From: a virus
Lineage: Duplodnaviria > Heunggongvirae > Uroviricota > Caudoviricetes
Length of the DNA stretch: 64,000 nucleotides
IMG/VR virus record: IMGVR_UViG_3300027509_000001
Span: 64,001-128,000 of that record
Strand: one strand, 5' to 3'
A model generated the notes under the pieces. It searched no databases. It was given only the letters and a program-made list of their open reading frames with translations, and was not told where the DNA came from. This document shows, one piece after another, positions 2,303-49,301 of the stretch; position 1 is the first letter of the stretch; every line of letters begins with the position of its first letter. Both the position numbers and the translations under genes were made by a program.

Positions 2303-2363
2303 AAAATTCTTAAATTTATTGATGGTCGGGTATTTTTACGTATAGCCGTTAATACGATTTAAT

Positions 2364-2993
2364 TTATTTCAAATTGTTTATGCAATTAAAAAATTCGTTT
2401 CTAGTGTCAATATTCTCCTTGAATCCCCCAGACAATTTAGATGTCATCATTGTGGAGTTATGCTTTATGCCTCTCACACATGCACACAAATGGTTGGCGG
2501 ATATTTTTACTGCTACTCCACCATTCCCTTCGCAAATATCGTTTATATAATTGTGTATTTGCATCGTAAGATTTTCTTGGACTTGTGGCCTTCGAGCGAA
2601 GTAATCTACAACTCTATTTAATTTAGATAATCCAATTACCTTTTTTCCTGGTAAATACGCAACATGAGCATGTCCTAAAAAAGAGAGGTGATGGTGAGAA
2701 CAGAAAGAGTGTACTGTGATTTTTCCTTGAAAGACCATGCCGTCGTAGCCATCTAGATTATCAAATGCTGTAATTTTTGGGGGTTCGTTATAACACCCCT
2801 TTGCCAAATCGTTAACAAATGATTTTGCTACCCTTCTTGGTGTATCTGATGAATTTGGGTCGTCTCGCCAATTAATTTTCAAAGCATCCATAAAACCTTC
2901 ATAGGCTTTTGCTGCTTCTTTTATCATTTTGGCTTGATCATCTTTAGAAAGGATTATATTGGAATTAGCGTATTCTAATAGTTTATTAGACAT
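2364..2993 (-). CDS. folE: GTP cyclohydrolase I (type IA)
   Basis: DTPRRVAK, SFCSHHHLSF, VIGLSKLNRVVDYFARRPQVQENLT, HLCACVRG; start moved to ATG at 2993 (MSNKLLEY) because the track's longer start overlaps the promoter. Confidence 0.95.
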   Translation of the reverse strand: MSNKLLEYANSNIILSKDDQAKMIKEAAKAYEGFMDALKINWRDDPNSSDTPRRVAKSFVNDLAKGCYNEPPKITAFDNLDGYDGMVFQGKITVHSFCSHHHLSFLGHAHVAYLPGKKVIGLSKLNRVVDYFARRPQVQENLTMQIHNYINDICEGNGGVAVKISANHLCACVRGIKHNSTMMTSKLSGGFKENIDTRNEFFNCINNLK

Positions 2994-3013
2994 ATAGTTA
3001 TTTTTGTTGATTA

Positions 3014-3045
3014 TAAATATAATAAAAATATTTGACAATACCAAA
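3014..3045 (-). promoter_or_regulatory. Bacteroidota sigma70-type promoter upstream of folE-ino1-HAD-queC
   Basis: Minus strand TTTG-N20-TATATTTA; it also overlaps a TATTTATA element (3012-3019). Confidence 0.6.
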
Positions 3046-6735: not shown

Positions 6736-8592
6736 TCAAACCCCTCTTAAATTATCGTATGCGATTATATGAGGCCTGCCTGTAAAATTATATCCTTCTC
6801 GAATACACATCTCAATAGTTGCTGGATATGTAAACAATAAAGATTGTCTATTATCTCCGGCCGGCATGACGTATGTTTTACTTTTTGGAATATTAAACTC
6901 TACCCTAAAGTCTTCTATTTCCTTTAATGCCTGTTCGCTTCCATCCCAGACTGGCTTGTAATGATAATCCTTAGATTGATAACCAGATATATTATGAAGA
7001 ATTGCTTCTTTATTCAACCGATATTTATTATGTTGTTTAATCATTTTCTCATCTACAATCTTTCCTTTAGGTGTTTTAATGCCTAACTTTGGTATTGTAT
7101 TTGAAAATTTAGGACTTAAACTATATAATCCTATTCTGCGGTCCAGTTCTAATTTATGGGAGCCTTCACTTTCAATTGTCATTACAATGCTGTTGGCAAT
7201 ACAGAAGTTATTTAATTCATTTACAATTTTCATATGCATTGTAGGCGAACCACCTGTTAGCATCATTTCTTTAATATATGGATATTTTTTGTATTCGTCA
7301 TATACATTCTGAATGCTAAATTTTCCTTTCTCTGGATGAATTGAAGTATACCAAGAATCGCAAAATCCGCCCTTTTCTCCGAACCAACAATTGTGAGAAA
7401 CTATAGATTGATGCCTACCAACTCTAACTAAATAATTATTGTATTCATTACAATGAAAATTATATGATTTATATAAAGACTTAGTTTTAATTCTCTTAAT
7501 AGATTCAATTTTAATACCATTTGTTAAAAATGTATTAACTTTCTTCAAAATAGTTTCATCATCGTGAGCAGCCATATTGATTGCCAAATATTTTGTATTT
7601 GGTAGACTTGATTTGGAATATATTTCATTTAATTCTTTATCATAATCATTCCAATTTGGTCTAAATGTTGAAACTTCTTCGCCTACTTCAATAAATTTAT
7701 TTTCGCCGTGAACCTTGAAATCTGGTACCTTTATTTTTCCCTTGCATTTCAAACTAAATTCTCCATCACCAGTAAACCATATTTGATCGTTCAGTCCTGC
7801 GGCTTTAATAATGTTCCAAAACCTCTTTTCGGGTCCGGACATGCCCTGTCCCATTTTCCATCCTAATCCATACCCGTTTTTATTTCTAGTTGAAATTGCT
7901 TTTTGAACAGTATTTGGGTTGAACATTGGATTATTCGCTTTCATATTGTCGGATATCCTGTCATATTTGTCTTTTATTTCAGTTTCCGATAATAAACCAT
8001 CCGGGTGTAACGTTCCTCTTTTTTCTAATCGTCTTTCATGCGTTAATTCCAATAATCCAGATTCGTCCCCAAAATGTCTCGTATTTGGATGCGAATGCGT
8101 TTTTTTAGCAATATCCGAATTAAACATTGGATTATATTTTCGCATGCGTCGAGAATTTCGCATTTTTCCAGAACAATGTACTAATTCATCAGTTTCTAGT
8201 AAATTTGCAGCCATTTTCCATCCACGAGTTGTAAGTACTGGATGCTCTGGTGTTACATTGAAATGTTGGTGGCCATTTTTTAATTTAACTACTACATATT
8301 CGCTTATGTCATTTATTTCTATGTCATTTATAGTGGTTTCTTGAATAGACGATGATAATTCATCCCAAGCTAAGATTCGATCTCCTACTTTTACATCCCA
8401 CATTTTTATACCTTTACCATTAGCATTAAATACTATTGGGTCCGCCCTGCCAGGAACTTTCACATGGCATCTATGTGTACATCCGGAAGTCCGAACTACG
8501 ATTGTGGGCATTCCTGCGCGGCTTCCTTCTCCCTGTACGGCTGGGTAAATTTCAACTATTGGCTGTATCTTGTTTAAATCCATTTTTTTCAT
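6736..8592 (-). CDS. queE: 7-carboxy-7-deazaguanine synthase (radical SAM) interrupted by an intein
   Basis: EIYPAVQGEG..AGMPTIVVRTSGC, after splicing CTHR-CWFGEKGGFCDSWYTS, LTGGSP, IESEGS, SLSPKF; about 258 aa mature. Confidence 0.9.
   Translation of the reverse strand: MKKMDLNKIQPIVEIYPAVQGEGSRAGMPTIVVRTSGCTHRCHVKVPGRADPIVFNANGKGIKMWDVKVGDRILAWDELSSSIQETTINDIEINDISEYVVVKLKNGHQHFNVTPEHPVLTTRGWKMAANLLETDELVHCSGKMRNSRRMRKYNPMFNSDIAKKTHSHPNTRHFGDESGLLELTHERRLEKRGTLHPDGLLSETEIKDKYDRISDNMKANNPMFNPNTVQKAISTRNKNGYGLGWKMGQGMSGPEKRFWNIIKAAGLNDQIWFTGDGEFSLKCKGKIKVPDFKVHGENKFIEVGEEVSTFRPNWNDYDKELNEIYSKSSLPNTKYLAINMAAHDDETILKKVNTFLTNGIKIESIKRIKTKSLYKSYNFHCNEYNNYLVRVGRHQSIVSHNCWFGEKGGFCDSWYTSIHPEKGKFSIQNVYDEYKKYPYIKEMMLTGGSPTMHMKIVNELNNFCIANSIVMTIESEGSHKLELDRRIGLYSLSPKFSNTIPKLGIKTPKGKIVDEKMIKQHNKYRLNKEAILHNISGYQSKDYHYKPVWDGSEQALKEIEDFRVEFNIPKSKTYVMPAGDNRQSLLFTYPATIEMCIREGYNFTGRPHIIAYDNLRGV
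7390..8469 (-). mobile_element. 360 aa intein in QueE with an internal Vsr/DUF559-like endonuclease
   Basis: Starts at Cys42 (CHVKVPG), block B VTPEHPVLT, ends IVSHN followed by Cys+1; internal SGPEKRF...VPDFKV..KFIEV nuclease-like segment and NPMFN repeats. Confidence 0.88.
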
Positions 8593-9274: not shown

Positions 9275-9766
9275 TTAAAAATAAGTTATCTTAGTCTTTT
9301 TATTGCCTTCTACGTGAACAAATGTATTGCCGGATCCAGCTCGGTTTCCTTTTTGGACTTCCAATGCAACTGTTTTTCCGTCAGCCGATGTTCCAAATAT
9401 TGCTAATCCAAATTGCAATTTATTGCTTGCTCTGAAACCATTGCCCAATTGAATTATTGGTAATACATATATGTCTTTCCATTTTACATTTAACCTGCCA
9501 GAAATTGTTGCTAGGTTTTTTGTAGTTCTAGTAGAAAGTATACTTTGAGCCGCTGAATATTTTAGTTTATATCCTTTAGTTGTTTTTGGTCTCGCCGTTG
9601 GTGGAAATGGTATTGTAATAGATGGTAGTGAAGCTTCTAGTTCATCCCTTGCATCGCCGCCATTTTTTAATATTTCGGGAGTATACTTATTTCTAAGTTT
9701 TTGAAGTGCAGAAGTGCTTTCGTATAATCTTTCCTGCTTTACTTCGTTCCAAATTTTCTTGTCCAT
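9275..9766 (-). CDS. Hypothetical protein with MxKKIWNE leader (putative internal virion protein)
   Basis: MDKKIWNEVK start and AAAAGGA upstream, nearly identical to the leader cassettes at 34.5-38 kb. Confidence 0.7.
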   Translation of the reverse strand: MDKKIWNEVKQERLYESTSALQKLRNKYTPEILKNGGDARDELEASLPSITIPFPPTARPKTTKGYKLKYSAAQSILSTRTTKNLATISGRLNVKWKDIYVLPIIQLGNGFRASNKLQFGLAIFGTSADGKTVALEVQKGNRAGSGNTFVHVEGNKKTKITYF

Positions 9767-34328: not shown

Positions 34329-34547
34329 TTAGTTAAATCCAGATGCTACCTCGAACTTTGAGCCTTTATATTTAATTTTTACAATTAACTCTTCACCTTC
34401 GTCTAATAGATCTTCATTTTTTCGTACTTGATTGGCTACGAATTTTCCCAACTTATCAAAGTCAGAAAATTTACCTATATCCCAGAAACCTTCTGTAATA
34501 ATCTTTGATAGCCCAACCTTTGCTTCATTCCAAATTTTCTTATTCAT
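34329..34547 (-). CDS. Small protein with MNKKIWNE leader
   Basis: Leader cassette shared with 34829-35044 and 37659-37973. Confidence 0.75.
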   Translation of the reverse strand: MNKKIWNEAKVGLSKIITEGFWDIGKFSDFDKLGKFVANQVRKNEDLLDEGEELIVKIKYKGSKFEVASGFN

Positions 34548-34560
34548 TTTATTCCTTTAT
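34522..34560. repeat. 39 bp dispersed repeat: RBS + ATG + leader cassette (copy 1)
   Basis: gcttcattccaaattttcttattcattttattcctttat; identical copy at 35019-35057, near-identical at 37949-37985, degenerate copies near 9745, 37071 and 37625. Confidence 0.85.
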
Positions 34561-34578
34561 ATTTTTCATAGTGATTCC

Positions 34579-34836
34579 TTAAAATATGTTTCTTACTGCA
34601 TATGCTATTAAATCCCATGACGCAACCTCAACTGTCAATTTCTTTTCATCTACATGAACAGTATTGGTCTTCAAAGCTCGTTTAACCCATGCTTCTACTT
34701 TCTTCGGGTTATTCTTTGCTTCTGATCCTACGTTTATCGTCACGTATTTTCCATCAACTTTAAATGAGCTATTTTCATTTAATGATTTTGCGACCGCTTC
34801 GTGTATTATATTCTTTAATTGCATATTATTATCCAT
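34579..34836 (-). CDS. Small hypothetical protein (IIHE and LNE motifs near N-terminus)
   Basis: MQLKNIIHEAVAKSLNENS; TATTTATA at 34844-34851 upstream. Confidence 0.65.
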   Translation of the reverse strand: MDNNMQLKNIIHEAVAKSLNENSSFKVDGKYVTINVGSEAKNNPKKVEAWVKRALKTNTVHVDEKKLTVEVASWDLIAYAVRNIF

Positions 34837-35044
34837 GTTTGTTTATAAATAAATCTACTTTAACTTCGATGTAATCGACTATGTCCTTTTCATCGAATCC
34901 TTCGCTTTCAAATGTTTTAAATATCCCTTTAATTGAATTGTCAAGGCCTGCCAAATCTTTACTGCTGACCATTCCATTCATTCTACTAATAACATTCATC
35001 GAAACTTCTGTAGTTAATGCTTCATTCCAAATTTTCTTATTCAT
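34829..35044 (-). CDS. Small protein with MNKKIWNE leader
   Basis: MNKKIWNEALTTE. Confidence 0.75.
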   Translation of the reverse strand: MNKKIWNEALTTEVSMNVISRMNGMVSSKDLAGLDNSIKGIFKTFESEGFDEKDIVDYIEVKVDLFINKHG

Positions 35045-35053
35045 TTTATTCCT

Positions 35054-35266
35054 TTATTTTCTAAAATTCCAAGTCACTTCTGTTTTCATTTCAATTAAGC
35101 GATCTCTTATGGTTCTAAGTTCATTTTCTATCTTTCTATCCTCTTTACTGCTAGTTAATGAAAATGGCGCTTGTCTGTGAGCTGCGGAGAGGGCCTTTAT
35201 TGCTTCATTGATTTTTTGAATTGGATATGGTTCTGCTGCTTCGTTTAAAATGTCTATTAATTTCAT
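35054..35266 (-). CDS. Small protein with MKLIDILNE leader
   Basis: MKLIDILNEAAE; leader shared with the next gene. Confidence 0.75.
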   Translation of the reverse strand: MKLIDILNEAAEPYPIQKINEAIKALSAAHRQAPFSLTSSKEDRKIENELRTIRDRLIEMKTEVTWNFRK

Positions 35267-35275
35267 TATTTATTC

Positions 35276-35563
35276 CTATTTTTTTTCAAATCTATCAGCA
35301 TTTACGCTAAATGAATCTGTATTTTTGTTTCCACCTTTTGGATACACTCTTGCGTTTGACCCATAATAGTTTTGAAATATATATATTTCACTCTCAGAGT
35401 TTCTTGTTAGATATGGAAGACTAGATCCATAATGTTCTTTTCCAGTAGATCTCATTTTTTTAATTTCAGCCCGAGTTGCTTTATTGAATACTAATTCAGT
35501 ACCTGGCTCATAATCATATTTATGTTCATTAATACTTTCGTTTAAAATATCTATTAATTTCAT
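35276..35563 (-). CDS. Small protein with MKLIDILNE leader
   Basis: MKLIDILNESINE. Confidence 0.75.
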   Translation of the reverse strand: MKLIDILNESINEHKYDYEPGTELVFNKATRAEIKKMRSTGKEHYGSSLPYLTRNSESEIYIFQNYYGSNARVYPKGGNKNTDSFSVNADRFEKK

Positions 35564-35566
35564 AAT

Positions 35567-36721
35567 TTACTTTATATACATTTTCATTGGTACTCCAGCC
35601 AAATGCTGTTCTAAATATTCAGCTTCTGCTGCTTTCTTTTCGAGTTGGGCTTTTGAACCAAATGAGTCTAAAAATTCTTTTATTTCTTCAATTAACGATT
35701 CTTGTTCTGCGGCTGCCTGTGTTAACAGATCGTCCGAATTCAATGTTATTTCTGTATCGGGAATTGGTATTTGCGAATATTTGCCCCGTACAAAACCTAA
35801 CATCTCTTTACAAAGTGCTAAGGCATATCTTTGCATCCAATTTCTAGCGATTGAATTCGTTGCACTATATTTTAAATTATCATATGGTATATTGCTAATA
35901 TCAGAAATCAATGATTCGCTTTGGTCAATATTAATATCTTCTGATTCTAATGTGTAATCGAAGTATATTTTTGTTGCATGAGTTGGAACTGGAAAAATTC
36001 GTATTTTATCTCCAGTTAATTTAAAACCATAATGACTTTTTCTTATCTGATCGTTTAATTCAACCGCTTGAATTCGTTGCACATCACTATTTAATGGCGT
36101 CAATAAGTAATCAGAACCTACTCCATTCATTCCAAATTCATCTATTAGAGCTTGATTGGTGCCTGCGCCTGCTGCTTGGGTTATATATCTACTTGAGGCT
36201 GGACTTGGAGAATGATATACTTTTCTTATTGTAAATTCGTCAGATGTTGGATCACCAAGTTCTAATTCAGTATCTGTGTCATCAGTTAAATTATAAACTT
36301 GCTTACCAGCTGTGGTGTTTATAAATCCCTGATATTGATTTTGGGAACCGCCTGATGGAGCTGCTACTCCATATTGTTCTGCTACTTTAAAAACCCCAGA
36401 TAAACTTGCCTGTACATAATTACCTGTAAAGTTTAAAGCTCCAATTGGAGACCCTTGAACGTCCATTAGTAGATCTCTCGCTGCATACATATGAAGATAA
36501 TATCCATACTTCATAACAGACTCTTCATAAGCTGCATAAAAATTATCAGATATCAATTCTACATCAACTATTGGATATCCTAATCTTCTAGCTGCCCACT
36601 TGGAAAACTTATCTATGTCAGTTGCAAAATCACCGTCAGCGTCAAAATGCCCATATGGTGTTTCTCCAGCTGCGAATGTACTTGATCCTGTCCATGTATT
36701 TATTACTGGTTCATCTGCCAT
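35567..36721 (-). CDS. Neck/head-tail adaptor protein (gp13-like)
   Basis: RRLGYPIVDVEL, YALALCKEMLGFVRGKY..IPIP, ITLN, MKMYIK C-terminus. Confidence 0.8.
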   Translation of the reverse strand: MADEPVINTWTGSSTFAAGETPYGHFDADGDFATDIDKFSKWAARRLGYPIVDVELISDNFYAAYEESVMKYGYYLHMYAARDLLMDVQGSPIGALNFTGNYVQASLSGVFKVAEQYGVAAPSGGSQNQYQGFINTTAGKQVYNLTDDTDTELELGDPTSDEFTIRKVYHSPSPASSRYITQAAGAGTNQALIDEFGMNGVGSDYLLTPLNSDVQRIQAVELNDQIRKSHYGFKLTGDKIRIFPVPTHATKIYFDYTLESEDINIDQSESLISDISNIPYDNLKYSATNSIARNWMQRYALALCKEMLGFVRGKYSQIPIPDTEITLNSDDLLTQAAAEQESLIEEIKEFLDSFGSKAQLEKKAAEAEYLEQHLAGVPMKMYIK

Positions 36722-37086
36722 TAGTAGTTTAACCTAATTTCAATCTTTTTAATTGCCACCTGTGTTTTTTCAATTGACATGTTTACTTTGTTTAGTTTTT
36801 CGCCGTAATTATTTGCATCGTTGTCTGTCCATTCTAAACCCTTTTGACCAGATTCTGAGTCCATATCTGAGAATATTTCTCTTTTTTCTATATATAAGTT
36901 TTTTAGTTGGCGTTGCATGTTCCACAAGTTGTTTTCTAAAGACTCCCTCTGTTTACCATACACTCTTTTCTTAAGGTTGGAATTCGATTGAGATTTTAAT
37001 TTATCATGGACCATTTGTCTGGCGCGAACCCTTATAAGGACAGGGTCATTTGCATGTAAAGCTTCGTTCCAAATTTGTCTGTTCAT
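36721..37086 (-). CDS. Coiled-coil protein with MNRQIWNE leader
   Basis: MNRQIWNEALHAN. Confidence 0.7.
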   Translation of the reverse strand: MNRQIWNEALHANDPVLIRVRARQMVHDKLKSQSNSNLKKRVYGKQRESLENNLWNMQRQLKNLYIEKREIFSDMDSESGQKGLEWTDNDANNYGEKLNKVNMSIEKTQVAIKKIEIRLNY

Positions 37087-37398
37087 TTAGCCCATATCCT
37101 TCATGTCCTCTTCAACTTCCATCATATTATTTAATACTTTATCAATAGTAACATCAAAGTCTCTACCAGATTGCTTAGTAAGTAAATTTCTTACGATTCT
37201 ATAACAATTTTCAGTATCATTAGTAAACATTTTATATTTACCTGTTTCTCTAGATAATGTACGTAAATCACTTTCAGCACTTTCTAAAGTCTTTTGAATT
37301 TTCTCTAAAGATTTAATCCATGTTTGTAATGTCGAAAGTTTAAGATCGTTGCGCTCATTTAATCTTTGAGCTGCTTCTTTTAATTCTATTAATTTCAT
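37087..37398 (-). CDS. Helical protein with MKLIELKE...LNE leader
   Basis: Start moved to ATG at 37398, preceded by AAAAAGGA. Confidence 0.7.
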   Translation of the reverse strand: MKLIELKEAAQRLNERNDLKLSTLQTWIKSLEKIQKTLESAESDLRTLSRETGKYKMFTNDTENCYRIVRNLLTKQSGRDFDVTIDKVLNNMMEVEEDMKDMG

Positions 37399-37399
37399 T

Positions 37400-37645
37400 T
37401 TAAGTCCTTTTTCCATGATCCCACAATAAAGTAGAAATTATATCTAATAATTTTTTATCTGAAGGAGATGATTTAACATTCATGATTCCAGATCCGCCTA
37501 CTGTGAAACTGGCTATTTGTTTTGTTCCCTCATAAAACCCACCTTCGTTTGTGTTAACGTCTACTTTCATTACATACTTTCCTAATTTAGTATTCTGAAC
37601 GTTTTCGCTATCTTTTAAGGCTTGATTCCATATCTTACTATTCAT
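37400..37645 (-). CDS. Small protein with MNSKIWNQ leader
   Basis: Start moved to ATG at 37645, preceded by AAAAGGA. Confidence 0.7.
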   Translation of the reverse strand: MNSKIWNQALKDSENVQNTKLGKYVMKVDVNTNEGGFYEGTKQIASFTVGGSGIMNVKSSPSDKKLLDIISTLLWDHGKRT

Positions 37646-37658
37646 TTTATTTTTCCTT

Positions 37659-37973
37659 TTATAATTTAAATGCAATATAGGAATCGTCTCCGTCTCCGTT
37701 TAATTCATCCCAGAAATATTCTGCTGCTTCTTCTGGGGTGTCGTAATCTTCAATTGAACCATCTTTAGTAACCTTTCGGATAACCATTTGTTTTAATTGC
37801 TTACCAGTTCCTTTATAAAATTCTTCTTGGCCCTGATATTTGCTAATAAATAGCATATACTTAGTTCCGTCTTTAAGGTCTTTCCATTGGTAATTTTTAT
37901 CATTCAATGATTGCATTGATTCTAATATTACATTTGATTCGTTTAGAACTTCATTCCAAATTTTCTTATTCAT
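37659..37973 (-). CDS. Small acidic protein with MNKKIWNE leader
   Basis: MNKKIWNEVLNESNVILES. Confidence 0.75.
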   Translation of the reverse strand: MNKKIWNEVLNESNVILESMQSLNDKNYQWKDLKDGTKYMLFISKYQGQEEFYKGTGKQLKQMVIRKVTKDGSIEDYDTPEEAAEYFWDELNGDGDDSYIAFKL

Positions 37974-37984
37974 TTTATTTCCTT

Positions 37985-38314
37985 TTAAATATCTTTAAAT
38001 TCAATATTAGCTAATTTTTCAGTTTTTTTAAGAGCTTCATATGCTGATTTCCATGGGGACTCTTTTTCATTGTGATCGAAAAATATTCCAAACTGATTTA
38101 TTGGTCTTGCATTTGCTTTTCTAGCTTCGTGATCTGCATATATAAATACAAACGCCACATTTTCATTAGTCGTCTCAATAACAGTTTCTTGATGCCCGTC
38201 CGGTCTATCTATTAATTTATCATCATCTGACCTAGCTAATGTTATTTTTTTGATTCGATAGTATGCATTTTCTATGATATCATTTTGAAATGTATAATTT
38301 GCTATTATTGCCAT
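37985..38314 (-). CDS. Hypothetical protein
   Basis: 109 aa ORF. Confidence 0.65.
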   Translation of the reverse strand: MAIIANYTFQNDIIENAYYRIKKITLARSDDDKLIDRPDGHQETVIETTNENVAFVFIYADHEARKANARPINQFGIFFDHNEKESPWKSAYEALKKTEKLANIEFKDI

Positions 38315-38408
38315 ATTAAAATATTAGATTTAACGTAATTTAAATTAGATGTAAGCGACTTTATGTCGTTATGTATATAAGTATGCCAGATGATTTAAAT
38401 TGCTTAAA

Positions 38409-38639
38409 TTAAATGCTTCTTTGCAAGTCCTTTAATATCATCCTATATATTGTGTTTTGATCACTTTGGGAAACATCTTCTATGTTTAGGCCTGCATCAT
38501 CCAGTGCCGTTTCCCAATTATCGTCTATAAGATTATAAATACTTATCGAATCTACAATAGTTTTCATTTCAGCCTTAGATAATTTGCCCGGTTGCGATTC
38601 GTTTATACCAGCTATTTTTAATTGTTGCTCGTTTAACAT
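38409..38639 (-). CDS. Small acidic hypothetical protein (MLNE...GINES)
   Basis: Start moved to ATG at 38639, preceded by CAAAGGA. Confidence 0.65.
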   Translation of the reverse strand: MLNEQQLKIAGINESQPGKLSKAEMKTIVDSISIYNLIDDNWETALDDAGLNIEDVSQSDQNTIYRMILKDLQRSI

Positions 38640-38671: not shown

Positions 38672-40180
38672 TTAAATATTCATTTCGTATTTTAAACTTC
38701 CGCAATCCCAAATTCTATCATAACCCAAATTTAACATGTTCTGATATTCAGTTAATTCTTTATTTGCAGTTGGAAATTTTTGTAAAATATTTGACTTAGT
38801 AAAATTAAATCTATGCCGTCTAGTTTTATGATCTAATATATACCAATAATTTGGAGCTCCATCTGATATTTTAGTAAATCCTATCTGTTCATATAAATTT
38901 CCATTACTATATCTTCTATCAGCATACGAGATGATTTTTTCTGGAGAGTAACAACGAATAAAATAGTTTAATAATTTTGATGCTCCTCCGATTACACTAC
39001 AATTTATCTTATTACAAAATCTTAATAATTCCCATTGAGGATTGTTCGATCCAGTAATTTTTCTTTTAGTAAAATTCATAACTGAAACTAATTCATTATT
39101 ATAATACAATCCAATGTGAACTTTTGCTCCAATACTGCCCTGTAAATGATTTAATTTTAAGAATTGCATGGAATCTTTAGAGTTAAGCAATTTAATTTGA
39201 CATTTCCTAGCATATATTCTAGTCTTTACGTCTCCTAGCATCGAATCAATTCTGGACAAAACTATATTTTTATGGTTTAACCATTCATCCTCAAATATAT
39301 GAATCAATTGTATATTATTTTTAATTGCAAGATTTGTTTTGTCCAAATGGTAATTTTTATGTTTTCCAGATCCTTCTTTGTGCCAATATAAACCATTATA
39401 TTCAATCGCAATATTTTTTATAGGAATATAAAGATCGAATTCAGTTCCTAATTTTCTATAATTTGGAATTACTTCTAGATTTTTTCTAGATATATAAGAT
39501 TCAAGTTCTAATTCTGGTTTTGATCTCCATGTGTTTTTTTGCAATTCAATATTTTCATGCCATAACTTACTTAATTTATCACTGGTTTTATTTGACACTA
39601 TTGGCCCATATAATTCTTTATAAGTAGCCTGTGTCATATTATGCTTCTTAAGATGACTATTCGTTATAGTTTTAAGTCGGTCTCCACAAATTTGACATTC
39701 AACTCCACCAGATTCTGTATTAATTAATGACGTTCTCGTTGATTCTCTATTATGCATTACGTATAATGGTTTGAATTCTGGAAAATTAGAAATTATATCA
39801 GTTACAGATTTTCCATGTTTCTTTTTACAATGAGATGTAAACATTCCTGATTTATTATTGACGTCAATTGTTGTCCAGTTACAATATGGGCATTTAATAG
39901 TTGGTCTCGTATCTTTTGGTTTATCGATAATTTCCCAGTCATCCCAATTCAATTCGTAACCTAAAACATTTCTGCTATATTTTCCTAGAGCCCCGGATTT
40001 ATTTAAAATGTCTGTAGAAGTTTTTCCTGTCGCAACATGTTTAATTAATTTATCTTTGGGGTTTTTAATATTAGATTGGCGTTTGGCGTTTAATTCTTTG
40101 TCATTGAATTTACATTCATTCGAACAATAGTATTTACCAGTTTTTAAAATTTCATTTCCACAAATTTTACAAATTTTCAT
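38672..40180 (-). CDS. Zn-finger + Vsr/PD-(D/E)XK-like endonuclease + GNAT-like C-terminal domain (Hef-like putative homing endonuclease)
   Basis: CxxC and C2H2-like motifs (CKICG, CPYC...HCKKKH, CQICG...HLKKH), SKPELEL...FDLYIP.KNIAIEYNGLYWH, then RIYARKC...NHLQG...WELLRFC...IGGASKLL...ISYADRRYS.G.LY. Confidence 0.7.
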   Translation of the reverse strand: MKICKICGNEILKTGKYYCSNECKFNDKELNAKRQSNIKNPKDKLIKHVATGKTSTDILNKSGALGKYSRNVLGYELNWDDWEIIDKPKDTRPTIKCPYCNWTTIDVNNKSGMFTSHCKKKHGKSVTDIISNFPEFKPLYVMHNRESTRTSLINTESGGVECQICGDRLKTITNSHLKKHNMTQATYKELYGPIVSNKTSDKLSKLWHENIELQKNTWRSKPELELESYISRKNLEVIPNYRKLGTEFDLYIPIKNIAIEYNGLYWHKEGSGKHKNYHLDKTNLAIKNNIQLIHIFEDEWLNHKNIVLSRIDSMLGDVKTRIYARKCQIKLLNSKDSMQFLKLNHLQGSIGAKVHIGLYYNNELVSVMNFTKRKITGSNNPQWELLRFCNKINCSVIGGASKLLNYFIRCYSPEKIISYADRRYSNGNLYEQIGFTKISDGAPNYWYILDHKTRRHRFNFTKSNILQKFPTANKELTEYQNMLNLGYDRIWDCGSLKYEMNI

Positions 40181-40254: not shown

Positions 40255-40283
40255 AAAAAAAGAGTGGATATTTCTACCCACTC
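40255..40283 (-). terminator. Intrinsic terminator after major capsid gene
   Basis: Minus strand GAGTGGgTA-GAAA-TAtCCACTC followed by T7. Confidence 0.8.
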
Positions 40284-40315: not shown

Positions 40316-41944
40316 TTATACTGTATCCAAACCGTCAATTTGAATAGTACCATAAAATTCAGGTCTTAATATCTTCTTAGCATATCTTGTCATTACGCCT
40401 TTACGTGGTGTAAAGTTGTCTGGATCAAGTACTAGAGGAGTCGTAATCAATGGAATATATGGAGCATATACTGCACCTGTTTCCAAATACTCAGAACCTC
40501 TGTATCCCATAAGAATTAAATTCTCTGTCATGTAAGGATTTTTATAAACAGTAAATCTGTTATTTAAAGCCCCTACCTTTCTAACACCCATTGCAAATTG
40601 TGACTTGTCACCATCTGTACTAGCTGCATAACCAGGAATTGATTCAATGATTGTAGCTACTTCTGGGCTAGTTACCATAAAGTTTGCACCACCTCTCATT
40701 GTCAATTTGTTAATTTGATTCGATACACTTTGCAATTTAGTACCTAACGTTTGGAACCATGTTCCTTGGTTATAAGCACTTGCATTTGCAGAAGTTTGTG
40801 AGAATTGTTTTGTCCCTGCATCATATTCAAAACCAATTTTTGCAGACCATCTGTTTGTAGTTTGCGCATTAGTAATTAACATGTCCAATAATTCAAAATC
40901 AATTTCCTGAGAAATATATTCACCTAACATTGCAGTTAATTCTGCTTCTGCATCAATTGAATGATATGCATTAATGTCTTGGCTAAATTCTGGAGTCCAG
41001 ATTGCTTTTAACTTTCTTGTCTTAGCAACAATAGTCTCTTGTCTCATTTGTAGATCTAAAGTAGGAATATCTAACGGATCTTCTCCAGTCTTTCCTTCTT
41101 CAAAATCACCTCTAGTAATATCTGTTGGTTGCTTGTGATAAGCTACGGTTGGAGTAGCTGCTGCCATGTTAGTAGCATTTGTTCCACTTTCTCCTACAAT
41201 AATAAATGTAATCTCAGTTTGGTCAGATGATACTCTAGTATACTGGCTCAATTGAGTTTTAATTAATGGATCTGTGATTGTAAACGCTCTTACACCTTCT
41301 AGGTCTGGAGTAGTTAAGTCTGCTACTGGAACAACTACTTTAAGTACTCTATCTGCGGTAATATCTGCGTCTAATAACGCTAATACTTCACTGTTGTATT
41401 GTAAATCAAATTCTTTAGTTGCTTGAACTGAAGTCGCTGAATCTACACTTGCTACAACATCTACATCGTTTACTGAATATCCAAATCTACCAACACCATA
41501 TAATCCACCAGTACCAACTGCATCTCCACGTCTTGCGTCTGTAACACCAAATACACTATCTTCTTGAGAGTCTCTAGCTGAGCCTGTTTTATAACCTGCT
41601 TGTCCAGTTGCGTATTTATGTTCTAGCCAGAATACTAAACCGTTAGGTAAGTTCATTGGTTGAGTAGAAACAAATTCTTTAGAAGATATACTTGAAAAGA
41701 TTCTTCTAATTAATGGTAATGCAATTCCTGCCCACTCTTCTGCGCCTTTTTCAGTTGAAGTTGAGTTTGCTTCATTTAAAATTTGACCTGCTTGATTTTC
41801 TAACAAGCGAGCCAATTGATTTGCTTCTGATTCATTTAAACCAGTTAACAATTTAGTTGGTGCCCATTTTTCTACCAACCTTTTCATTTCCGCTGCTCTA
41901 TCTGCTCTTTTATTTGCAGTCGGGAATAATGATTTAACGTTCAT
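40316..41944 (-). CDS. Major capsid protein (T4 gp23-like)
   Basis: LVEKW...LLENQ, LPLIRRIF, VSTQPMNLPNGLVF, TRKLKAIWTPE..QD..AYHSIDAEAELT, YAPYIPL, FTPRKGVMTRYA. Confidence 0.97.
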   Translation of the reverse strand: MNVKSLFPTANKRADRAAEMKRLVEKWAPTKLLTGLNESEANQLARLLENQAGQILNEANSTSTEKGAEEWAGIALPLIRRIFSSISSKEFVSTQPMNLPNGLVFWLEHKYATGQAGYKTGSARDSQEDSVFGVTDARRGDAVGTGGLYGVGRFGYSVNDVDVVASVDSATSVQATKEFDLQYNSEVLALLDADITADRVLKVVVPVADLTTPDLEGVRAFTITDPLIKTQLSQYTRVSSDQTEITFIIVGESGTNATNMAAATPTVAYHKQPTDITRGDFEEGKTGEDPLDIPTLDLQMRQETIVAKTRKLKAIWTPEFSQDINAYHSIDAEAELTAMLGEYISQEIDFELLDMLITNAQTTNRWSAKIGFEYDAGTKQFSQTSANASAYNQGTWFQTLGTKLQSVSNQINKLTMRGGANFMVTSPEVATIIESIPGYAASTDGDKSQFAMGVRKVGALNNRFTVYKNPYMTENLILMGYRGSEYLETGAVYAPYIPLITTPLVLDPDNFTPRKGVMTRYAKKILRPEFYGTIQIDGLDTV

Positions 41945-41987: not shown

Positions 41988-42932
41988 TTATCCATTCAAT
42001 GGTGTAATACCAGCAATTTTCATCATTCTTTCTGAAACAATGTCTTTAACTGGGTCGGCTGTTTTAGCTCCAATGGCTTTTATATCCTGTGAAGCAGTTT
42101 CTGCTAATCTAGCTTTTGCTTTTGATCCAGAATTTTGTAATGTTTCTGCGATTGTTGCATATACTAATTTAGCATCTTTAACAGTAGAAGTTCTGTCAAA
42201 CGCTTCTAAAACTTTAAGTTTTGCTGATTCGCTTAATTCAAAATTCTTAATCAATTTATGTGAATACATTAATTTTGCATTTAGCAAGTTAACTTCCCCA
42301 TTAGTTTCTCTAAGAGTTTGAATTGCTTTATAAGCTTCTTTAAGGTCTGCTGTCATTTTCTCATTTGCTCTACTTTCGTTAGACTGAATGATTTGATAAG
42401 CTTCTTTAAGGTCTGCTTTTAATTCCGCAATTTCTTTTTTCATGTCTTCTTCAGTTTCATCCTCAACACTTTCATCAACATCTTCGCCTTTTTTCTTAGC
42501 GATTGCTTTTTTAAGTGCTGGTGGTAATTCACCTTCTTGCATGTCTTCTTCGTCTTCCATTTCCATTTCTTTAGTAACTTCAGAAATAATTTCATCTAAA
42601 TCGCTTTCAGTAATCTCTTTATCATCGTCCTTTAAATCGGATTCTAATTCAGCAATTACAGCTTCTAGATTTAAATCATCTTCATCTTCAGAAGATTCTT
42701 CTTTTAATTTTTCATCGTCACATCCCTCACCTTCTTTCATGTCACTTGCTGGAGTTGCGTCTTTACCGTCGTCCATATAGTCTTCGTCAGCCGCTTCTGT
42801 TGCTAGTTTTGCTTCGATCATTGTTTTAATCGTTGGTTGAAATGTTTCGTTGATTGTATCCATTGCATTTTTGTAAGCTGTTTCTTTTAAAAGTTTAGCT
42901 TCTGCAATAACATCTTTCAATAAGTTGTCCAT
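41988..42932 (-). CDS. Prohead core scaffold protein (gp22-like)
   Basis: Highly acidic coiled coil, EVNLLNAKL.YS.KL, FDRTSTVKDAKLVY, ERMMKIAGI; directly upstream of MCP. Confidence 0.85.
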   Translation of the reverse strand: MDNLLKDVIAEAKLLKETAYKNAMDTINETFQPTIKTMIEAKLATEAADEDYMDDGKDATPASDMKEGEGCDDEKLKEESSEDEDDLNLEAVIAELESDLKDDDKEITESDLDEIISEVTKEMEMEDEEDMQEGELPPALKKAIAKKKGEDVDESVEDETEEDMKKEIAELKADLKEAYQIIQSNESRANEKMTADLKEAYKAIQTLRETNGEVNLLNAKLMYSHKLIKNFELSESAKLKVLEAFDRTSTVKDAKLVYATIAETLQNSGSKAKARLAETASQDIKAIGAKTADPVKDIVSERMMKIAGITPLNG

Positions 42933-43093: not shown

Positions 43094-43309
43094 CTAGGAA
43101 AATTGTTGGCGATATCTCGCTGATTCTACTGTTTTCCTACGCTTTACTGATTTTTTTGTAAAATGCCTATTTTCGAAAATTGTTTTTAATTTTCCAGATT
43201 TACTTACTTCTTCTTTCCATGTTTTTATGGCAAGTCGCAAATCTTTGTCTATAACTTTGGCACCTGTACCTTGGATTGTGCCTAAAAACTGTTTATCTTT
43301 TTTTCGCAT
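43094..43309 (-). CDS. rpsU: Phage-encoded ribosomal protein bS21
   Basis: KVIDKDLRLAIKTWKEEVSKSGKLKTIFENRHFTKKSVKRRK follows the bS21 pattern (V..nie.Al..fK..v.k.G.l.....r..f.KpS.krr); head-gene location is the known context of phage bS21. Confidence 0.8.
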   Translation of the reverse strand: MRKKDKQFLGTIQGTGAKVIDKDLRLAIKTWKEEVSKSGKLKTIFENRHFTKKSVKRRKTVESARYRQQFS

Positions 43310-43342: not shown

Positions 43343-44338
43343 TTATTTTTTTGTTAAAATGGCATTAATCGTTGTCATTATAGTTTGATAGTATCTAACT
43401 AGATTTCGAAAGTGGTAATCGATTTGTTTGCCATCATTATAATCTTTTATTGCGCTCGATAATTCATCTACTACGTTAATATATGTTGGAAGTAATTCTT
43501 TAGGACCTTTGCTCCAAGAAAAAAGTTCTGGGTTATCTAGCATATATTTAAAAGCCTTATCAGTTTGTGCCTTAAGGTTATGAACTTTTACAACATATTT
43601 TGCCAACTTAGGATCCATTTTACCTTTCCTCTTTTCTTTCTTCATTTGAGCAATTTTTTTGGCATAATTCAAATGCTTATCTCTTAAAATATCCCAATCA
43701 CTTCTTACAGAGTTTGCAAAATCTTTATTGTGCTCTTTAGAGACATTAACATCAGAATTTGATTTTATAACATACGCCGTGTATTTATTGGACATTAAAT
43801 CAGAATTTTTAATAACTGAAATCGATGATATTCCTGTTTTATTTGATTTTGCATTGCCTCTTCCAGTACTTACGTATACGTTATTCTGCTTTCCTATGCT
43901 TTTTCCTTTAGATGTACCATAACTATGCCTCGAACCAGACATATGGACATGCTTTCCACCTCTCATTATTCCCGCTATTTCTTTGTATCGTTCATCAACA
44001 AAAATGACCACATCTAATTTATTTTGAGTCATATGACTCTTGGCCTTGTCGCCTGGAATTATTAATATCATATCATCAGTTACATCCGATGATTTAATGC
44101 CCAATTTCGAGAGTCCATTGAACATATTAAATGCAGATCTTCGGTTCCAACCAGAATTTGCATCATTAGATGTATATACGTTGTATTTAGATATTTTTTG
44201 CATTTTAGATGATTTAAATGCTTCCTTTATTAAATACCTATTAATTGCTTCTTTTACAATTCTTTTAACTTGTGGTTTTGTATACGTTTTCATTTGCATT
44301 TGCATTATTTTAAACAACAATTTCCTGCCAATTCGCAA
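43343..44338 (-). CDS. Basic hypothetical protein (possible internal head protein)
   Basis: 331 aa, N-terminal IVKEAINRYLIKEA; located in the head operon. Confidence 0.6.
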   Translation of the reverse strand: MRIGRKLLFKIMQMQMKTYTKPQVKRIVKEAINRYLIKEAFKSSKMQKISKYNVYTSNDANSGWNRRSAFNMFNGLSKLGIKSSDVTDDMILIIPGDKAKSHMTQNKLDVVIFVDERYKEIAGIMRGGKHVHMSGSRHSYGTSKGKSIGKQNNVYVSTGRGNAKSNKTGISSISVIKNSDLMSNKYTAYVIKSNSDVNVSKEHNKDFANSVRSDWDILRDKHLNYAKKIAQMKKEKRKGKMDPKLAKYVVKVHNLKAQTDKAFKYMLDNPELFSWSKGPKELLPTYINVVDELSSAIKDYNDGKQIDYHFRNLVRYYQTIMTTINAILTKK

Positions 44339-44949
44339 ATAATATCTCTAATTATTATTTCAGCATATTGTTCTTGTGTTAATTCATTTTTATTGACCGA
44401 TTCGCTTATAGGAGCTAAGAATGCTTGATGTGTAGATGGATTAGAAACAAAATCCCAACAAACCAAATTATAATCTTCTGATACTGCGACTGTTTCTTCG
44501 TCTACTTGTGTTACCGATCCCATTCCCCTTGAACTTATACCAACTGTCAAACCAGCTAATATTAATTCCTTTAATATATTTCCAGAAGGCGTATTCAATA
44601 TTTCGACAGTTCCAACAACATCATTTCCTTCCCACCATATTTTTCTTATTACGTGCGATACGTTTCTGAAATTTACTACACTTGAATCTGGATGATCTAA
44701 TTCTCCATATGCTCTATTTTCTGCTATAAAAACCTTTTCATAGTTTTTAACTTCTCTTTCTAAAATATTTCTTGGATAAATTCGTTTATTTTGATTCTTA
44801 GCTTCAGCTCTTTGTAATACTCCAGTTACTAATAAACTACCACCATTCTTTTTGATAGATTCTTCTAGCCTAGTTCTGACTTGTGATGGATTTAAACCCT
44901 TTATTTCATTAATAAGAAATGGCTGAGATGTTAATATTGGTTGTTTCAT
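44305..44949 (-). CDS. Prohead core protease (gp21-like)
   Basis: GVLQRAEAKNQNKRIYP, AYGELDHPDS, VGISSRGMGSV, WDFVSNPST. Confidence 0.95.
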   Translation of the reverse strand: MKQPILTSQPFLINEIKGLNPSQVRTRLEESIKKNGGSLLVTGVLQRAEAKNQNKRIYPRNILEREVKNYEKVFIAENRAYGELDHPDSSVVNFRNVSHVIRKIWWEGNDVVGTVEILNTPSGNILKELILAGLTVGISSRGMGSVTQVDEETVAVSEDYNLVCWDFVSNPSTHQAFLAPISESVNKNELTQEQYAEIIIRDIICELAGNCCLK

Positions 44950-46244: not shown

Positions 46245-49200
46245 TTATATATCAGTGTCGTCGGATAAAACCAAAGATTCTTCATTTAACATACTTATTC
46301 CATGCAAATCTTTTAATGGAGTTTCAGTAATAAATGTAGATTTAATTGCATTTGATTTTGCAGATACGTATGTTTGTGGTATCGATTTAATGGCTTCCTT
46401 TTTCATTTTCAATCCACGTTGTAGTGTTTTGGAACCATCTGGATCTTCTCCGTTTATATCGTCTTGCTTTCTTCCAAATTTAGTTTTTTTAGTTGGACGT
46501 CCTGGATTATCTTCTCTTTTATCTCCTTTGTATAAATTCTTAATATTACTCGGATCGTGGGGTTTTGCCAATTTATCTACATCTCCTTTTTGAGCGTCCT
46601 TTTTTGCTTCTTCGTTTTCTTTATTCTCTTGACCCTGAGTCCAGGCTGCATATGCCATGTCGTGTGGTGTTCCGAAGGATCTACCTGTTTTTTCTGGATC
46701 ATTCCCTTCGGCTTCAATTTGCGCTTCTCTAAATCCGCGTTTAAGATCTTCTATTACTGCACTTTCTTCTTTTTCAATTTCTTCTGGATCCAGACTAAAT
46801 AAGTTAGTATAGACATATTCTCTAGAGAATAATTTACTTTCTAACATTTGGGTTACTAATGACATTTTCTCATTAAGCATATCTATTTTCTGTCTTTCAT
46901 AGATTATGCTAGGCGGGGTTAATGATATAGTAAAACTTAATAAATCTTCGTCTTTAAATCCTTGAGTATATAAATGTACATATGCCATCTTATATAACTC
47001 TCCAACAATCACTTTTTGAATTCTTTCTACTGTTCTAGCGAACCTAATATCTTCTGCTGCGAGAACTGAATTATGTATTATAACTCCAGCTGACGTTCCG
47101 AAGTTATGATATTTGTCAACAGTTATATCGCATGTATCAATTGAATTCGACTGCCATTCAACTCTAACCACTTTATGATTTAAATATCTTGGCTCGTATT
47201 TTCTGTAATTTTGCATAAATGCTTTATTCTCTAATGCCAATGGCATGCAATTGAATATGAATTCAATTTTATCTACATTTAAATAATTCCATAATTTATT
47301 TAATACATTTCGAGTAATTCCTAATGATTTCTCTAAATGAGAAAATGAATTACAAGATTCGGCTGTTTCAATTAATTGTTTATAGCTTATATTTTTATAC
47401 TTTGATTTACTTGGAGTTTGGTACGACTCCGGATGATTTTTCTGATATTCAATTCTACATGACGATGTGCAAAATCGTGTTATATCTTTACGATAATGAT
47501 GAATTTGGTAGTTAATTGAACAATTATCACATGTAGAAAATAGATCCGGTTTTTTATTGGCTGGTCCGTTGTCTTTTACCCATTGACCAAGTTTAGGACC
47601 AGATATCTTTCCACCGATTAATCCACCCATTCTACAATGTATCTTCTTTAATGGAGATTTATTATATGCGATCATGTTTGGATTTTTCTGCATATCAGCA
47701 GCATGAGTGGCATGAAATTGTCTATGCTCCCAAAAAGACATTGTACCATCTAAATTTTCTGGATTGTTGTTTCTGCCATTGTAATCAATATGGTGGAGTA
47801 CATTTGTTCCCTCCTTTATATTAAATTGATCTCCTACAATTCGATGTACTAATTTATATTTTCCATCGCATGGTTGATAAACTGTCGTGTAATGGTCTTT
47901 ATAACCGCCATTACTTAGATATAAGGGCATCAATGATAGATTTGGAGTTAAGTTTTGCGCTTCTACCCAAAGTCCATCACGGGTAAGGAATTTGTGGTCT
48001 GGTGTACATTCTATAAACTTATCATTATCTAACCAAACCTTTACAGTTTGAGTATTCATTCTAGTGAAGCCAGCCCATGTTATTTTGCCCGCTTTAATTG
48101 TATTATCTGATTCGTCAAGTGAGTAAGTGTAGTTAATTATTCCATTTTTATAATCTTCAATTAACTCTCGTACCGTTTTAGTTTCTCCACTAATTAACGG
48201 TATTTCAGTATCCGGGCTTATACATTTCCCTTCCACATCGGCATCGTATCCGAGGTATGCTTTTGGTATTTTAAGATACGCCATCATTTTATTTCGAAGA
48301 TACTCAATATCGGTTATTGCACCATCATTACTTAATCCATCTAATGTATTTATTTCTGTACTCGATTTTCCACCTCTAACCGGCAAATAAAAATCTTCCA
48401 TTGCATTCATTAGATTATATCTTAAGTTATACGATCCATCGTCATTAACATGTGGTATTTTTTTATTAGCATTAATTATTTCTTCGATGTGAGAGTCTAC
48501 TTCTTCTGGTGGAATAAGCCCTACGTCAATCTTAAATACCCTTCGTTCTGGCGCTCTCATTATTCTATGTAATAACATTGCATCTTCCATTAATAATAAC
48601 TGCTTAAATGTTTTCCTAGAACCTTCTACCATTGATTTACCATAAGGCAAATAATTAGTATCACTTAATAATCTAAAATGTGAAACTTCGTATCTTTCAA
48701 AAATATTTTTATTTAACTGAGTATATCCTTCGCCCTCATACACAAATACAGTTCGCAGATCTTCTCCGTGATTCTCTCTTCTTCTCATTAAAGATGGATG
48801 GACTGGTAACGCATCCACTAATCCAACTTTTGGTTGAACATCATGCAATAAAAACATGTCTCCGTTTTTACATAAAGCTCTTGCCCAATGCCATAAATTA
48901 AATTCAATATTAAGTACGTCGTAAAATAAGTTATTGAGTATTTTCTTTATATTTTCATTCTTAGTAGTAATACTCAATAATTCCCCATGAACATTCTTAG
49001 TAGTGGATTCATCTGCATATACATCTAATGCACCAGATAGAATTGCATCAGAGTCCATTAATTCATAATCAGAATACAATTGCATTCTAACTGCCTCTAT
49101 ATGCTCTTGAGTAGAATTTATAGAAGACCATCCAGATTGATTGTATGCTTTTCTTAAGCGTCGATATCTACTATATCGGGTTTGCTTATTACCGACAGCC

Positions 49201-49301
49201 TGTGTTTTGTCTAGGTCAATAAGTTTTAATCGATTTCCAGATGTCTTTGTTAATACAAGTTTTCTAGAAAACAAATTTATTAAAGTGTCGCGTAATGCCA
49301 T
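46245..49301 (-). CDS. Portal protein (gp20-like) interrupted by an intein
   Basis: DYELMDSDAILSGALDVYADE, LMEDAMLLHRIMRAPERRVFKIDVG, EDFYLPVRG, YLKIPKAYL, AEDIRFARTVERIQ; about 633 aa mature. Confidence 0.95.
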   Translation of the reverse strand: MALRDTLINLFSRKLVLTKTSGNRLKLIDLDKTQAVGNKQTRYSRYRRLRKAYNQSGWSSINSTQEHIEAVRMQLYSDYELMDSDAILSGALDVYADESTTKNVHGELLSITTKNENIKKILNNLFYDVLNIEFNLWHWARALCKNGDMFLLHDVQPKVGLVDALPVHPSLMRRRENHGEDLRTVFVYEGEGYTQLNKNIFERYEVSHFRLLSDTNYLPYGKSMVEGSRKTFKQLLLMEDAMLLHRIMRAPERRVFKIDVGLIPPEEVDSHIEEIINANKKIPHVNDDGSYNLRYNLMNAMEDFYLPVRGGKSSTEINTLDGLSNDGAITDIEYLRNKMMAYLKIPKAYLGYDADVEGKCISPDTEIPLISGETKTVRELIEDYKNGIINYTYSLDESDNTIKAGKITWAGFTRMNTQTVKVWLDNDKFIECTPDHKFLTRDGLWVEAQNLTPNLSLMPLYLSNGGYKDHYTTVYQPCDGKYKLVHRIVGDQFNIKEGTNVLHHIDYNGRNNNPENLDGTMSFWEHRQFHATHAADMQKNPNMIAYNKSPLKKIHCRMGGLIGGKISGPKLGQWVKDNGPANKKPDLFSTCDNCSINYQIHHYRKDITRFCTSSCRIEYQKNHPESYQTPSKSKYKNISYKQLIETAESCNSFSHLEKSLGITRNVLNKLWNYLNVDKIEFIFNCMPLALENKAFMQNYRKYEPRYLNHKVVRVEWQSNSIDTCDITVDKYHNFGTSAGVIIHNSVLAAEDIRFARTVERIQKVIVGELYKMAYVHLYTQGFKDEDLLSFTISLTPPSIIYERQKIDMLNEKMSLVTQMLESKLFSREYVYTNLFSLDPEEIEKEESAVIEDLKRGFREAQIEAEGNDPEKTGRSFGTPHDMAYAAWTQGQENKENEEAKKDAQKGDVDKLAKPHDPSNIKNLYKGDKREDNPGRPTKKTKFGRKQDDINGEDPDGSKTLQRGLKMKKEAIKSIPQTYVSAKSNAIKSTFITETPLKDLHGISMLNEESLVLSDDTDI
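47070..48224 (-). mobile_element. 385 aa intein with HNH endonuclease in portal
   Basis: CISPDTEIP start, CTPDHKFLT block B, VHRIV...LHHIDYNGRNNNPENL HNH, TCDITVDKYHNF...IIHN end, Ser+1. Confidence 0.92.

Follow-up and report, generated by a model that had tools for sequence, protein, structure and literature searches.

The 64,000-nucleotide stretch analysed here (bases 64001–128000 of the 188,518-bp virus record IMGVR_UViG_3300027509_000001; hereafter the window) carries an array of genes around a phage neck gene whose small, otherwise unrelated products start with one of two short leaders. Over the whole genome there are about 16–18 such leader-tagged proteins. The two leader types, M-N-K-K-I-W-N-E (A type) and M-K-L-x-D-I-L-x-E (B type), would correspond in this phage to the capsid targeting sequence (CTS) of T4; judging from the genes, they are probably T4-type capsid-targeting propeptides that are cut by the S77 prohead protease of the phage. 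By analogy with the T4 internal proteins, they most likely load the tagged proteins into the capsid. The CTS of T4 is a propeptide of ∼10 residues that is found on IPI, IPII, IPIII and Alt and is removed by gp21 (Mullaney and Black 1996, in PMC9026906, PMC3012670); the first ∼10 residues of IPIII suffice for packaging (PMC9026906, PMC3012670). The record belongs to the T4 superfamily, as a distant member, and encodes a capsid protein of the Gp23 family and a prohead protease of the S77 type. The GC content of the window is ∼31% and essentially every gene lies on the minus strand.

Leader-bearing genes

Eleven genes in the genome encode the A-type leader (M-N-x-x-I-W-N-E) and three to five the B-type leader (MKLxD-I/L-L-x-E). 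De novo clustering of N-terminal nonamers returned the A family as the largest cluster (12 members, 11 of them real) and a B-type cluster of four; control clustering on residues 13–21 produced nothing bigger than pairs. Searched with a degenerate DNA pattern of the A leader, the genome gives 11 matches on the coding strand and none on the other; a reversed control gives none. At their ends the A leaders read W-N-E↓A or W-N-E↓V, the B leaders L-N-E↓A, L-N-E↓S or L-K-E↓A (the arrow marks the predicted cut).

The array surrounds the neck (head-tail adaptor) gene, which is gp13-like, lies at 35567–36721 on the minus strand and is itself outside the leader family (PHROG 211 at 6e-13; Pfam Phage_T4_gp13 on an identical gene). 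An earlier note on this DNA had counted at least nine leader genes flanking it; we find eight clear members and two weaker ones, p76 and p85. All are encoded on the minus strand. The order upstream of the neck gene is A7 (104 aa, 37659–37973, MNKKIWNE↓V then LNE↓S), A6 (81 aa, 37400–37645, MNSKIWNQ↓A), B3 (103 aa, 37087–37398, MKLIELKE↓A with a second site RLNE↓R) and A5 (121 aa, 36721–37086, MNRQIWNE↓A), the last of which starts directly after the upstream stop codon and has no Shine-Dalgarno sequence of its own. Downstream follow B2 (95 aa, 35276–35563, MKLIDILNE↓S then INE↓H), which fills the slot directly after the neck gene, B1 (70 aa, 35054–35266, MKLIDILNE↓A), A4 (71 aa, 34829–35044, MNKKIWNE↓A) and A3 (72 aa, 34329–34547, MNKKIWNE↓A, mature part ∼64 aa). 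Of the weaker pair, p85 (85 aa, 34579–34836) starts MDNNMQLKNIIHEA; its candidate leader is MDNNMQLKNIIHE↓A, followed by a second site, SLNE↓N. The other, p76 (76 aa, 38409–38639), lies behind the same ribosome site, AAAGGAAATAAA-ATG, starts MLNE↓QQ, carries GINE↓S at residue 14 and is a weak candidate for a truncated leader.

Leader genes also occur outside the array. Six A-type copies lie elsewhere: A2 (163 aa, 9275–9766, minus strand, MDKKIWNE↓V), whose leader is at window position 9766, and copies at genome positions 12189, 152816, 155773, 156108 and 158470, the last four among tRNA-like sequences, a GIY-YIG endonuclease and accessory genes. Elsewhere in the genome (143374–143694), a 106-aa open reading frame (ORF) starts MKTATEKFKDIIRE↓VIRE↓E and resembles the MK.SEL..IIREE leader class of one relative, G003; it may represent a third leader class in this genome.

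Conservation of the leader peptide

The earlier note had described a 39-bp DNA repeat at 34522 and 35019, with a near copy at 37949. We find a repeat of 43 nt spanning the Shine-Dalgarno sequence, the ATG and the leader codons at 34521–34563, with copies at 35018–35060 (98% identical) and 37947–37989 (84%). Ile5, Trp6 and Glu8 hardly change across the 11 A copies, in contrast to residues 3 and 4; in the codons for I-W-N-E there are six synonymous and two non-synonymous changes. Since the changes in the conserved core are mostly synonymous, selection acts on the peptide, and selection at this level is sufficient to account for the DNA repeat. Likeness upstream of the start codon extends over at most 20 nt and corresponds to a generic ribosome site, AAAGGAA(A)TAAA, to which 25–39 nt of coding sequence are added. 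The same AAAGGAA Shine-Dalgarno precedes the capsid, sheath and tube genes, and A5, A9 and A11 are without it. The suggested cassette of ribosome site plus leader is thus a fair description of A3, A4 and A7 and does not extend to the family, which is united by its leader peptide and not by the ribosome site.

The leader core and the predicted maturation site of the capsid protein

The major capsid protein (Gp23 family, 40316–41944, minus strand; Pfam Gp23 2.7e-70, T4 gp23 structures 1e-27) has ILNE↓A at residues 55–59 (codons 41768–41782, minus strand), its predicted maturation cleavage site. Reading of the protein places QILNEA at residues 54–59, exactly as had been noted. The additional claim that this is the position at which T4 cuts gp23 stands in part: the site is kept in 78 relatives, where the corresponding residues are Q-[LI]-[VLI]-x-E and then A, V or S, immediately ahead of the conserved fold start, but the match to the T4 position is approximate only. 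The maturation site of T4 gp23 is F-L-T-E↓A. In ∼55,600 residues of minus-strand ORFs, I-[W/L]-N-E occurs 13 times: 11 times from residue 5 or 6 of leader proteins, once at residue 3 of a 40-aa ORF and once at capsid residues 55–58. Asn at P2 of the capsid site is peculiar to this phage, whose leaders have Asn there too. This co-variation is suggestive, although as a single case it is no proof.

The prohead protease (S77/T4 gp21 type, 44305–44949, minus strand; Pfam Peptidase_S77 9.7e-34, T4 gp21 structure 5JBL 8e-23) keeps the catalytic residues His86 (in GELDHP) and Ser140 (in GISSRG), both invariant in 10 relatives. Like gp21 it has candidate self-cleavage sites near both ends (compare PMC9026906), namely FLINE↓I at the N-terminus and ISE↓S, at an invariant Glu-Ser, at the C-terminus. 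Cleavage after Glu at a short motif is the general rule (PMC5694885, PMC9026906).

Many leader proteins hold a second potential site. A further hydrophobic-x-Glu within 10 residues of the first is present in 13 of 18, against a proteome background of 15% (p = 8e-8), for example ..WNE↓ALNE↓S, ..WNE↓AINE↓L and ..LNE↓SINE↓H. The propeptides of phiKZ and SPN3US also contain redundant cleavage sites (PMC5694885). More generally, hydrophobic-hydrophobic-x-Glu ends at residues 6–16 in 15% of the genes, compared with 4–6% in later windows of the proteins, and among the genes with such an N-terminus are those for the scaffold, for the protease and for two conserved proteins that lie between portal and protease. 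A predicted complex of protease and leader scored 0.02, a value that speaks neither for nor against cleavage.

Properties of the cargo

Fourteen predicted mature parts were compared; they span 61–155 residues and isoelectric points (pI) of 4.5–10.1. They share no significant similarity with one another, in agreement with the earlier observation that the proteins diverge completely past the leader. Searches for function against Pfam and PHROGs returned nothing significant (one match at E = 0.0027 to a PHROG of unknown function and a few sub-threshold Pfam matches), and no significant homology to T4 IPI, IPII or IPIII was found by PHROG/Pfam. In the protein Atlas, A2 and A7 matched nothing but unnamed viral clusters, or had TM scores < 0.5. 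None of the 14 cargos has a match in 81 related head/neck loci (1.06 Mb), while the conserved neighbouring genes do match there, and A5 and A9, when compared with 5.8 billion proteins, match themselves only. By these comparisons, the cargos are non-conserved accessory genes.

Leaders and cargo in other phages

We fetched 80 loci around related capsid genes, and three relatives in full. In the relatives, small ORFs that lie in twos or threes between the genes for protease and scaffold share lineage-specific leaders that end in hydrophobic-x-Glu, such as MKKTTKNLLRKIIKEE, MKLRQFISNVINE, MIKLKDLLGE and MKIADLILE. Since the relatives have leader families of their own, the B type is part of a widespread class. 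The three fully fetched relatives have 3–8 leader genes each, in one or two classes, so that the repertoire of the present genome is the largest of the four compared. For the A type, the exact coding pattern has no match in IMG/VR and two in JGI metagenome contigs, both internal to unrelated ORFs. The looser M-N-x-x-I-W-N-E gives > 115 single matches in IMG/VR, almost all of them an internal terminase motif or chance, and no contig with several copies.

The neck gene is separated from the next core gene by 3–50 nt in 37 of 44 relatives and by ∼300 nt in the other seven. Here the same junction measures 1,238 nt and holds five genes; the downstream half of the array is an insertion in this junction. 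In the seven relatives, which include Flavobacterium phage immuto, the junction is occupied by a conserved 99-aa family (L087:6294-6590, L076:5812-6108, L009:18059-18355, L058:14132-14491) without a PHROG match. Its members start MKLTDIILE, MKLSQIISE, MRKLVNE or MKIKKILKE, and the leader always ends in hydrophobic-x-Glu. When B2 was compared with this family by hhalign, only residues 1–10 aligned. The post-neck slot thus appears to keep leader type and position while the protein differs, although the proteins may instead have diverged to an extreme at such a distance.

An exhaustive search with A2 identified a homologue of its mature domain (residues 41–163, 36% identity, E = 2e-12) and a weaker one (2.6e-7). 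Where A2 has MDKKIWNE↓V, these proteins start MKLIEIVKKILNE↓G and MNKFINKILKE↓A. The former is encoded on a phage-like contig next to a gene that starts MKLAQLARKIIKE↓A. With one cargo behind different leaders and one leader type in front of different cargos, leader and cargo seem to be separable modules. The comparison of relatives for cargo turnover, a check that the earlier note had proposed, shows a variable cargo set in three ways (no cargo recurs in the 81 loci, the B2 slot differs, the A2 domain stands behind other leaders), all of them among distant relatives only.

Proposed pathway

We infer targeting, cleavage, retention in the head and injection of the leader proteins from sequence. 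The leader proteins would be produced alongside the head proteins, and the leader would bring them into the scaffolding core of the prohead. The S77 (gp21-type) protease would then cleave after the Glu of I-[W/L]-N-E, often also at a later hydrophobic-x-Glu, and would process the capsid protein at ILNE↓A likewise. The freed mature proteins, of 7–17 kDa, would remain with the DNA in the head and enter the host at infection.

Several observations weigh against this interpretation. Alignment to mature gp23* extrapolates the T4 N-terminus to ∼12 residues before ILNE↓A, and a second candidate site, LLE↓N, lies 9 residues upstream of it. The first 60 capsid residues hold four hydrophobic-x-Glu motifs, and the ILNE match could therefore be in part a post hoc choice; from the variation in relatives we estimate the chance of such a match at roughly 1 in 60. 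P3 of the A-type leader is Trp, whereas in the T4 motif it is Leu or Ile. A6 has Gln in place of the essential Glu, which makes its cleavage doubtful. The A-rich first codons (AAT AAG AAA) together with a strong Shine-Dalgarno would serve high expression too. The cargo pI values of 4.5–10.1 show that these are not uniformly basic, DNA-binding proteins, and five A-type genes are far from the structural module, in the company of tRNA-like and accessory genes.

Among the other explanations, the one that survives best accepts that the leader targets and is cleaved, but takes the proteins to be assembly or core parts (accessory scaffold or DNA-condensing proteins), some of them degraded and lost on maturation, rather than effectors that act on the host. 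We regard this as unlikely. In its favour, most of the small leader genes of the relatives are located between protease and scaffold, at the place of the prohead core genes of T4, 9 of the 14 mature parts are basic (pI > 8), and the post-neck 99-aa family is kept across distant relatives, as a structural part would be. The remaining five mature parts are acidic or neutral, however, and the cargos, with no counterpart in the 81 related loci and with A5 and A9 as ORFans, do not behave like assembly parts. The array is, moreover, inserted in a junction that is only 3–50 nt long in 37 of 44 relatives.

It is still less probable that the genes are fast-diverging paralogues from tandem duplication, whose starts are kept for translation efficiency or for a shared contact outside the capsid and with which the protease has nothing to do. 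Members are clustered, small proteins may diverge past recognition, the first four codons are A-rich, and a strong AAAGGAA site stands before most members and likewise before other abundant virion genes. What is invariant, however, is I-W-N-E and not the A-rich start, and initiation does not account for Trp and Glu. Nor does this explanation fit the tetrapeptide of the same type at the capsid maturation site, the enrichment of tandem second Glu sites, the lack of detectable similarity over mature parts of 61–155 aa or the occurrence of the A2 domain behind unrelated leaders in other phages. A tag for another enzyme or pathway (modification like that of ribosomally synthesized and post-translationally modified peptides, degradation or a secretion signal) is very improbable, as the genome has no SPASM domain and, in a QueE-like ORF, a single radical-SAM match below threshold, the leader lacks the hydrophobic core of a signal peptide, and the tag ends exactly in a protease-type motif that it has in common with the capsid protein.

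Returning to capsid-targeting propeptides, the earlier note went further and envisaged a modular system for packaging and injecting effectors. A targeting propeptide on exchangeable cargo is indirectly supported, and modularity across phages is seen. That the cargos are injected anti-defence or takeover proteins is a speculation by analogy with T4; we consider it possible, though the balance tips somewhat to the other side. A more elaborate version would have the lineage evolve a private, Trp-containing loading tag, co-adapted with its protease, that delivers ∼16–20 injected effectors, possibly including a Zeta-toxin-like P-loop kinase, with leader repeats of ∼40 nt serving as in-frame crossovers at which cargos are swapped. 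Taken as a whole, we think this improbable. If it were true for a phage with 7-deazaguanine DNA, the leader genes would be a ready catalogue of inhibitors of modification-dependent defences.

The premise of the earlier note that the DNA of the phage is modified is supported: the window encodes FolE and QueC, a QueE-like ORF is present, and the DNA is thus probably modified. The genes for GTP cyclohydrolase I (FolE) and the QueC-like protein flank a homologue of myo-inositol-1-phosphate synthase (window 1178–3044), an odd insertion in a deazaguanine operon. A 618-aa ORF (window 6736–8592) combines a QueE-like N-terminus and a sub-threshold radical-SAM match with a Hint/pretoxin-HINT domain, and probably represents an intein-interrupted enzyme of the 7-deazaguanine pathway.

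A role of the leader DNA as a recombination anchor is plausible but unproven. Because T4-type recombination needs < 50 bp of homology (PMC2839356), such a role is mechanistically reasonable, and a crossover between two leader copies would preserve the reading frame. Promoter-like sites near the leader genes (42 found, 43 expected in shuffled sequence) and T4-type late promoter or sigma-70 signals do not exceed expectation, and no promoter/stem-loop blocks like those of T-even internal-protein loci are present at the leader repeats.

Comparison with known systems

Systems of this kind are already known and published for T-even phages, whose internal proteins are highly diverse and have only the leader in common (PMC3012670). 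Like the T4 CTS, the sequences described here are short N-terminal leaders common to otherwise unrelated small proteins, they end in hydrophobic-x-Glu followed by a small residue, and they occur together with an S77 protease of the gp21 type and with a Gp23 capsid protein that has a similar predicted site. The cargos resemble the T4 internal proteins in being non-conserved accessory genes for products of 7–17 kDa in a phage whose DNA is probably modified. The leaders differ from the CTS in that they are unrelated to MKTYQEFIAE, measure 8–9 residues and, in the A type, have Trp at P3. This lack of likeness in sequence counts against homology but not against mechanism, because the kind is defined by function. 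Further differences are the coexistence of two leader classes, the number of genes (∼16–18 versus three in T4) and the second tandem Glu site in many leaders. The main cluster is inserted around the neck gene in the late structural block, whereas T4 has two internal-protein loci with early promoters.

The concept of a recombination anchor is not new either, having been proposed for the T-even internal-protein loci, at which recombination is already published (PMC3012670, PMC2839356, PMC12373910). For these loci, and for the PeSLs of RB49/phi1, the idea is the same: short conserved repeats beside accessory ORFs would act as sites of homologous recombination at which those ORFs are shuffled (Repoila et al. 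1994; Arbiol et al. 2010; PMC2839356, PMC3012670). Those elements are intergenic blocks of 70–100 bp with a promoter and a stem-loop, whereas the repeat here is at most ∼43 nt long, is mostly coding and has no documented exchange event. In phiKZ, 201phi2-1 and SPN3US, a protease related to gp21 also cuts after Glu, paralogues share N-termini and motifs are redundant (PMC5694885, PMC9026906). Their motifs are A/S/G-x-E, however, their propeptides often exceed 100 residues and the proteins are large; in capsid and protease, the phage described here is far nearer to T4 than to these phages.

New are the Trp-containing A leader, absent from the two contig collections searched (IMG/VR and JGI metagenome contigs), the coexistence of two classes that share a motif with the capsid protein, the second sites in tandem, and a repertoire that is this large and lies around the neck gene. 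If the tags load the head, the list of tagged genes is a list of the proteins delivered at the first moment of infection. The precedent in T4 is that all three tagged proteins specifically inhibit type IV restriction, with a different GmrSD nuclease as the target of each of Ip1, Ip2 and Ip3 (PMC12373910). The same logic would then apply in a distant T4-like lineage with a 7-deazaguanine pathway and a repertoire 5–6 times that of T4. It would also provide an annotation rule for uncultured T4-like phages, which is to seek the capsid maturation motif at the N-termini of small ORFs, and would make a very widespread P-loop kinase family a candidate virion-packaged enzyme.

The B4 kinase

The kinase in question, B4, is a 229-aa Zeta-toxin/AAA_33-type P-loop kinase (genome 31026–31715, L236:1026-1715, minus strand) and a candidate B-type member, with the N-terminus MKLNDILIE↓EILKE↓G. 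Its homologues number at least 7,900, many of them from marine metagenomes and some on phage-sized contigs of 150–170 kb. In the forms present among the best 120 homologues, Leu/Ile-x-Glu with a variable middle residue directly precedes the conserved G-V/L-Y-D-P core (GVYDP..GGPGSGKS). The N-terminal extensions of the homologues vary in length and class, and one is of the MKKSELRRLIREE type, a leader family of relative G003. The family is thus a candidate for a virion-packaged enzyme, although Leu/Ile-x-Glu could instead belong to the domain. A protein of one relative that starts MKLKNLILE↓GMYD was considered as a homologue of the kinase and rejected, as it gave no tblastn match.

Relatives and other features of the record

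The phage, an environmental T4-like virus, is known from metagenome assemblies alone. Its record is rated complete and has direct terminal repeats. The closest cultured phages by capsid identity are Microcystis phage Mel-JY01 (55%) and Flavobacterium phage immuto (51%); relatives in IMG/VR number hundreds, none with > 60% capsid identity. No near relative of the array was detected by megablast against 50,697 phage records, and a single-sequence query with the neck protein returned no relative from IMG/VR. A Logan contig (run SRR5754787) equals window positions 35028–37978; it is an independent assembly of the locus, 100% identical, and adds no variation. At both ends it breaks exactly within leader copies, which shows only that the leader repeats exceed the assembler word length (k = 31 assembly graph).

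The structural block further contains the large terminase, a gp15-like protein and the sheath. The T4-type portal (1018 aa, 46245–49301) bears an intein (Pfam Intein_splicing 1e-13), inside which there is a weak HNH match. An acidic, scaffold-like protein (41988–42932, minus strand) has many hydrophobic-x-Glu motifs and the N-terminus MDNLLKDVIAE↓A. Between its gene and the protease-side genes lies a homologue of ribosomal protein bS21 (43094–43309, Pfam 2.9e-07). The capsid gene and the leader array are separated by a free-standing homing endonuclease gene (502 aa, 38672–40180; PHROG 3339, 1e-105), which is preceded by a terminator-like hairpin at 40262–40283.

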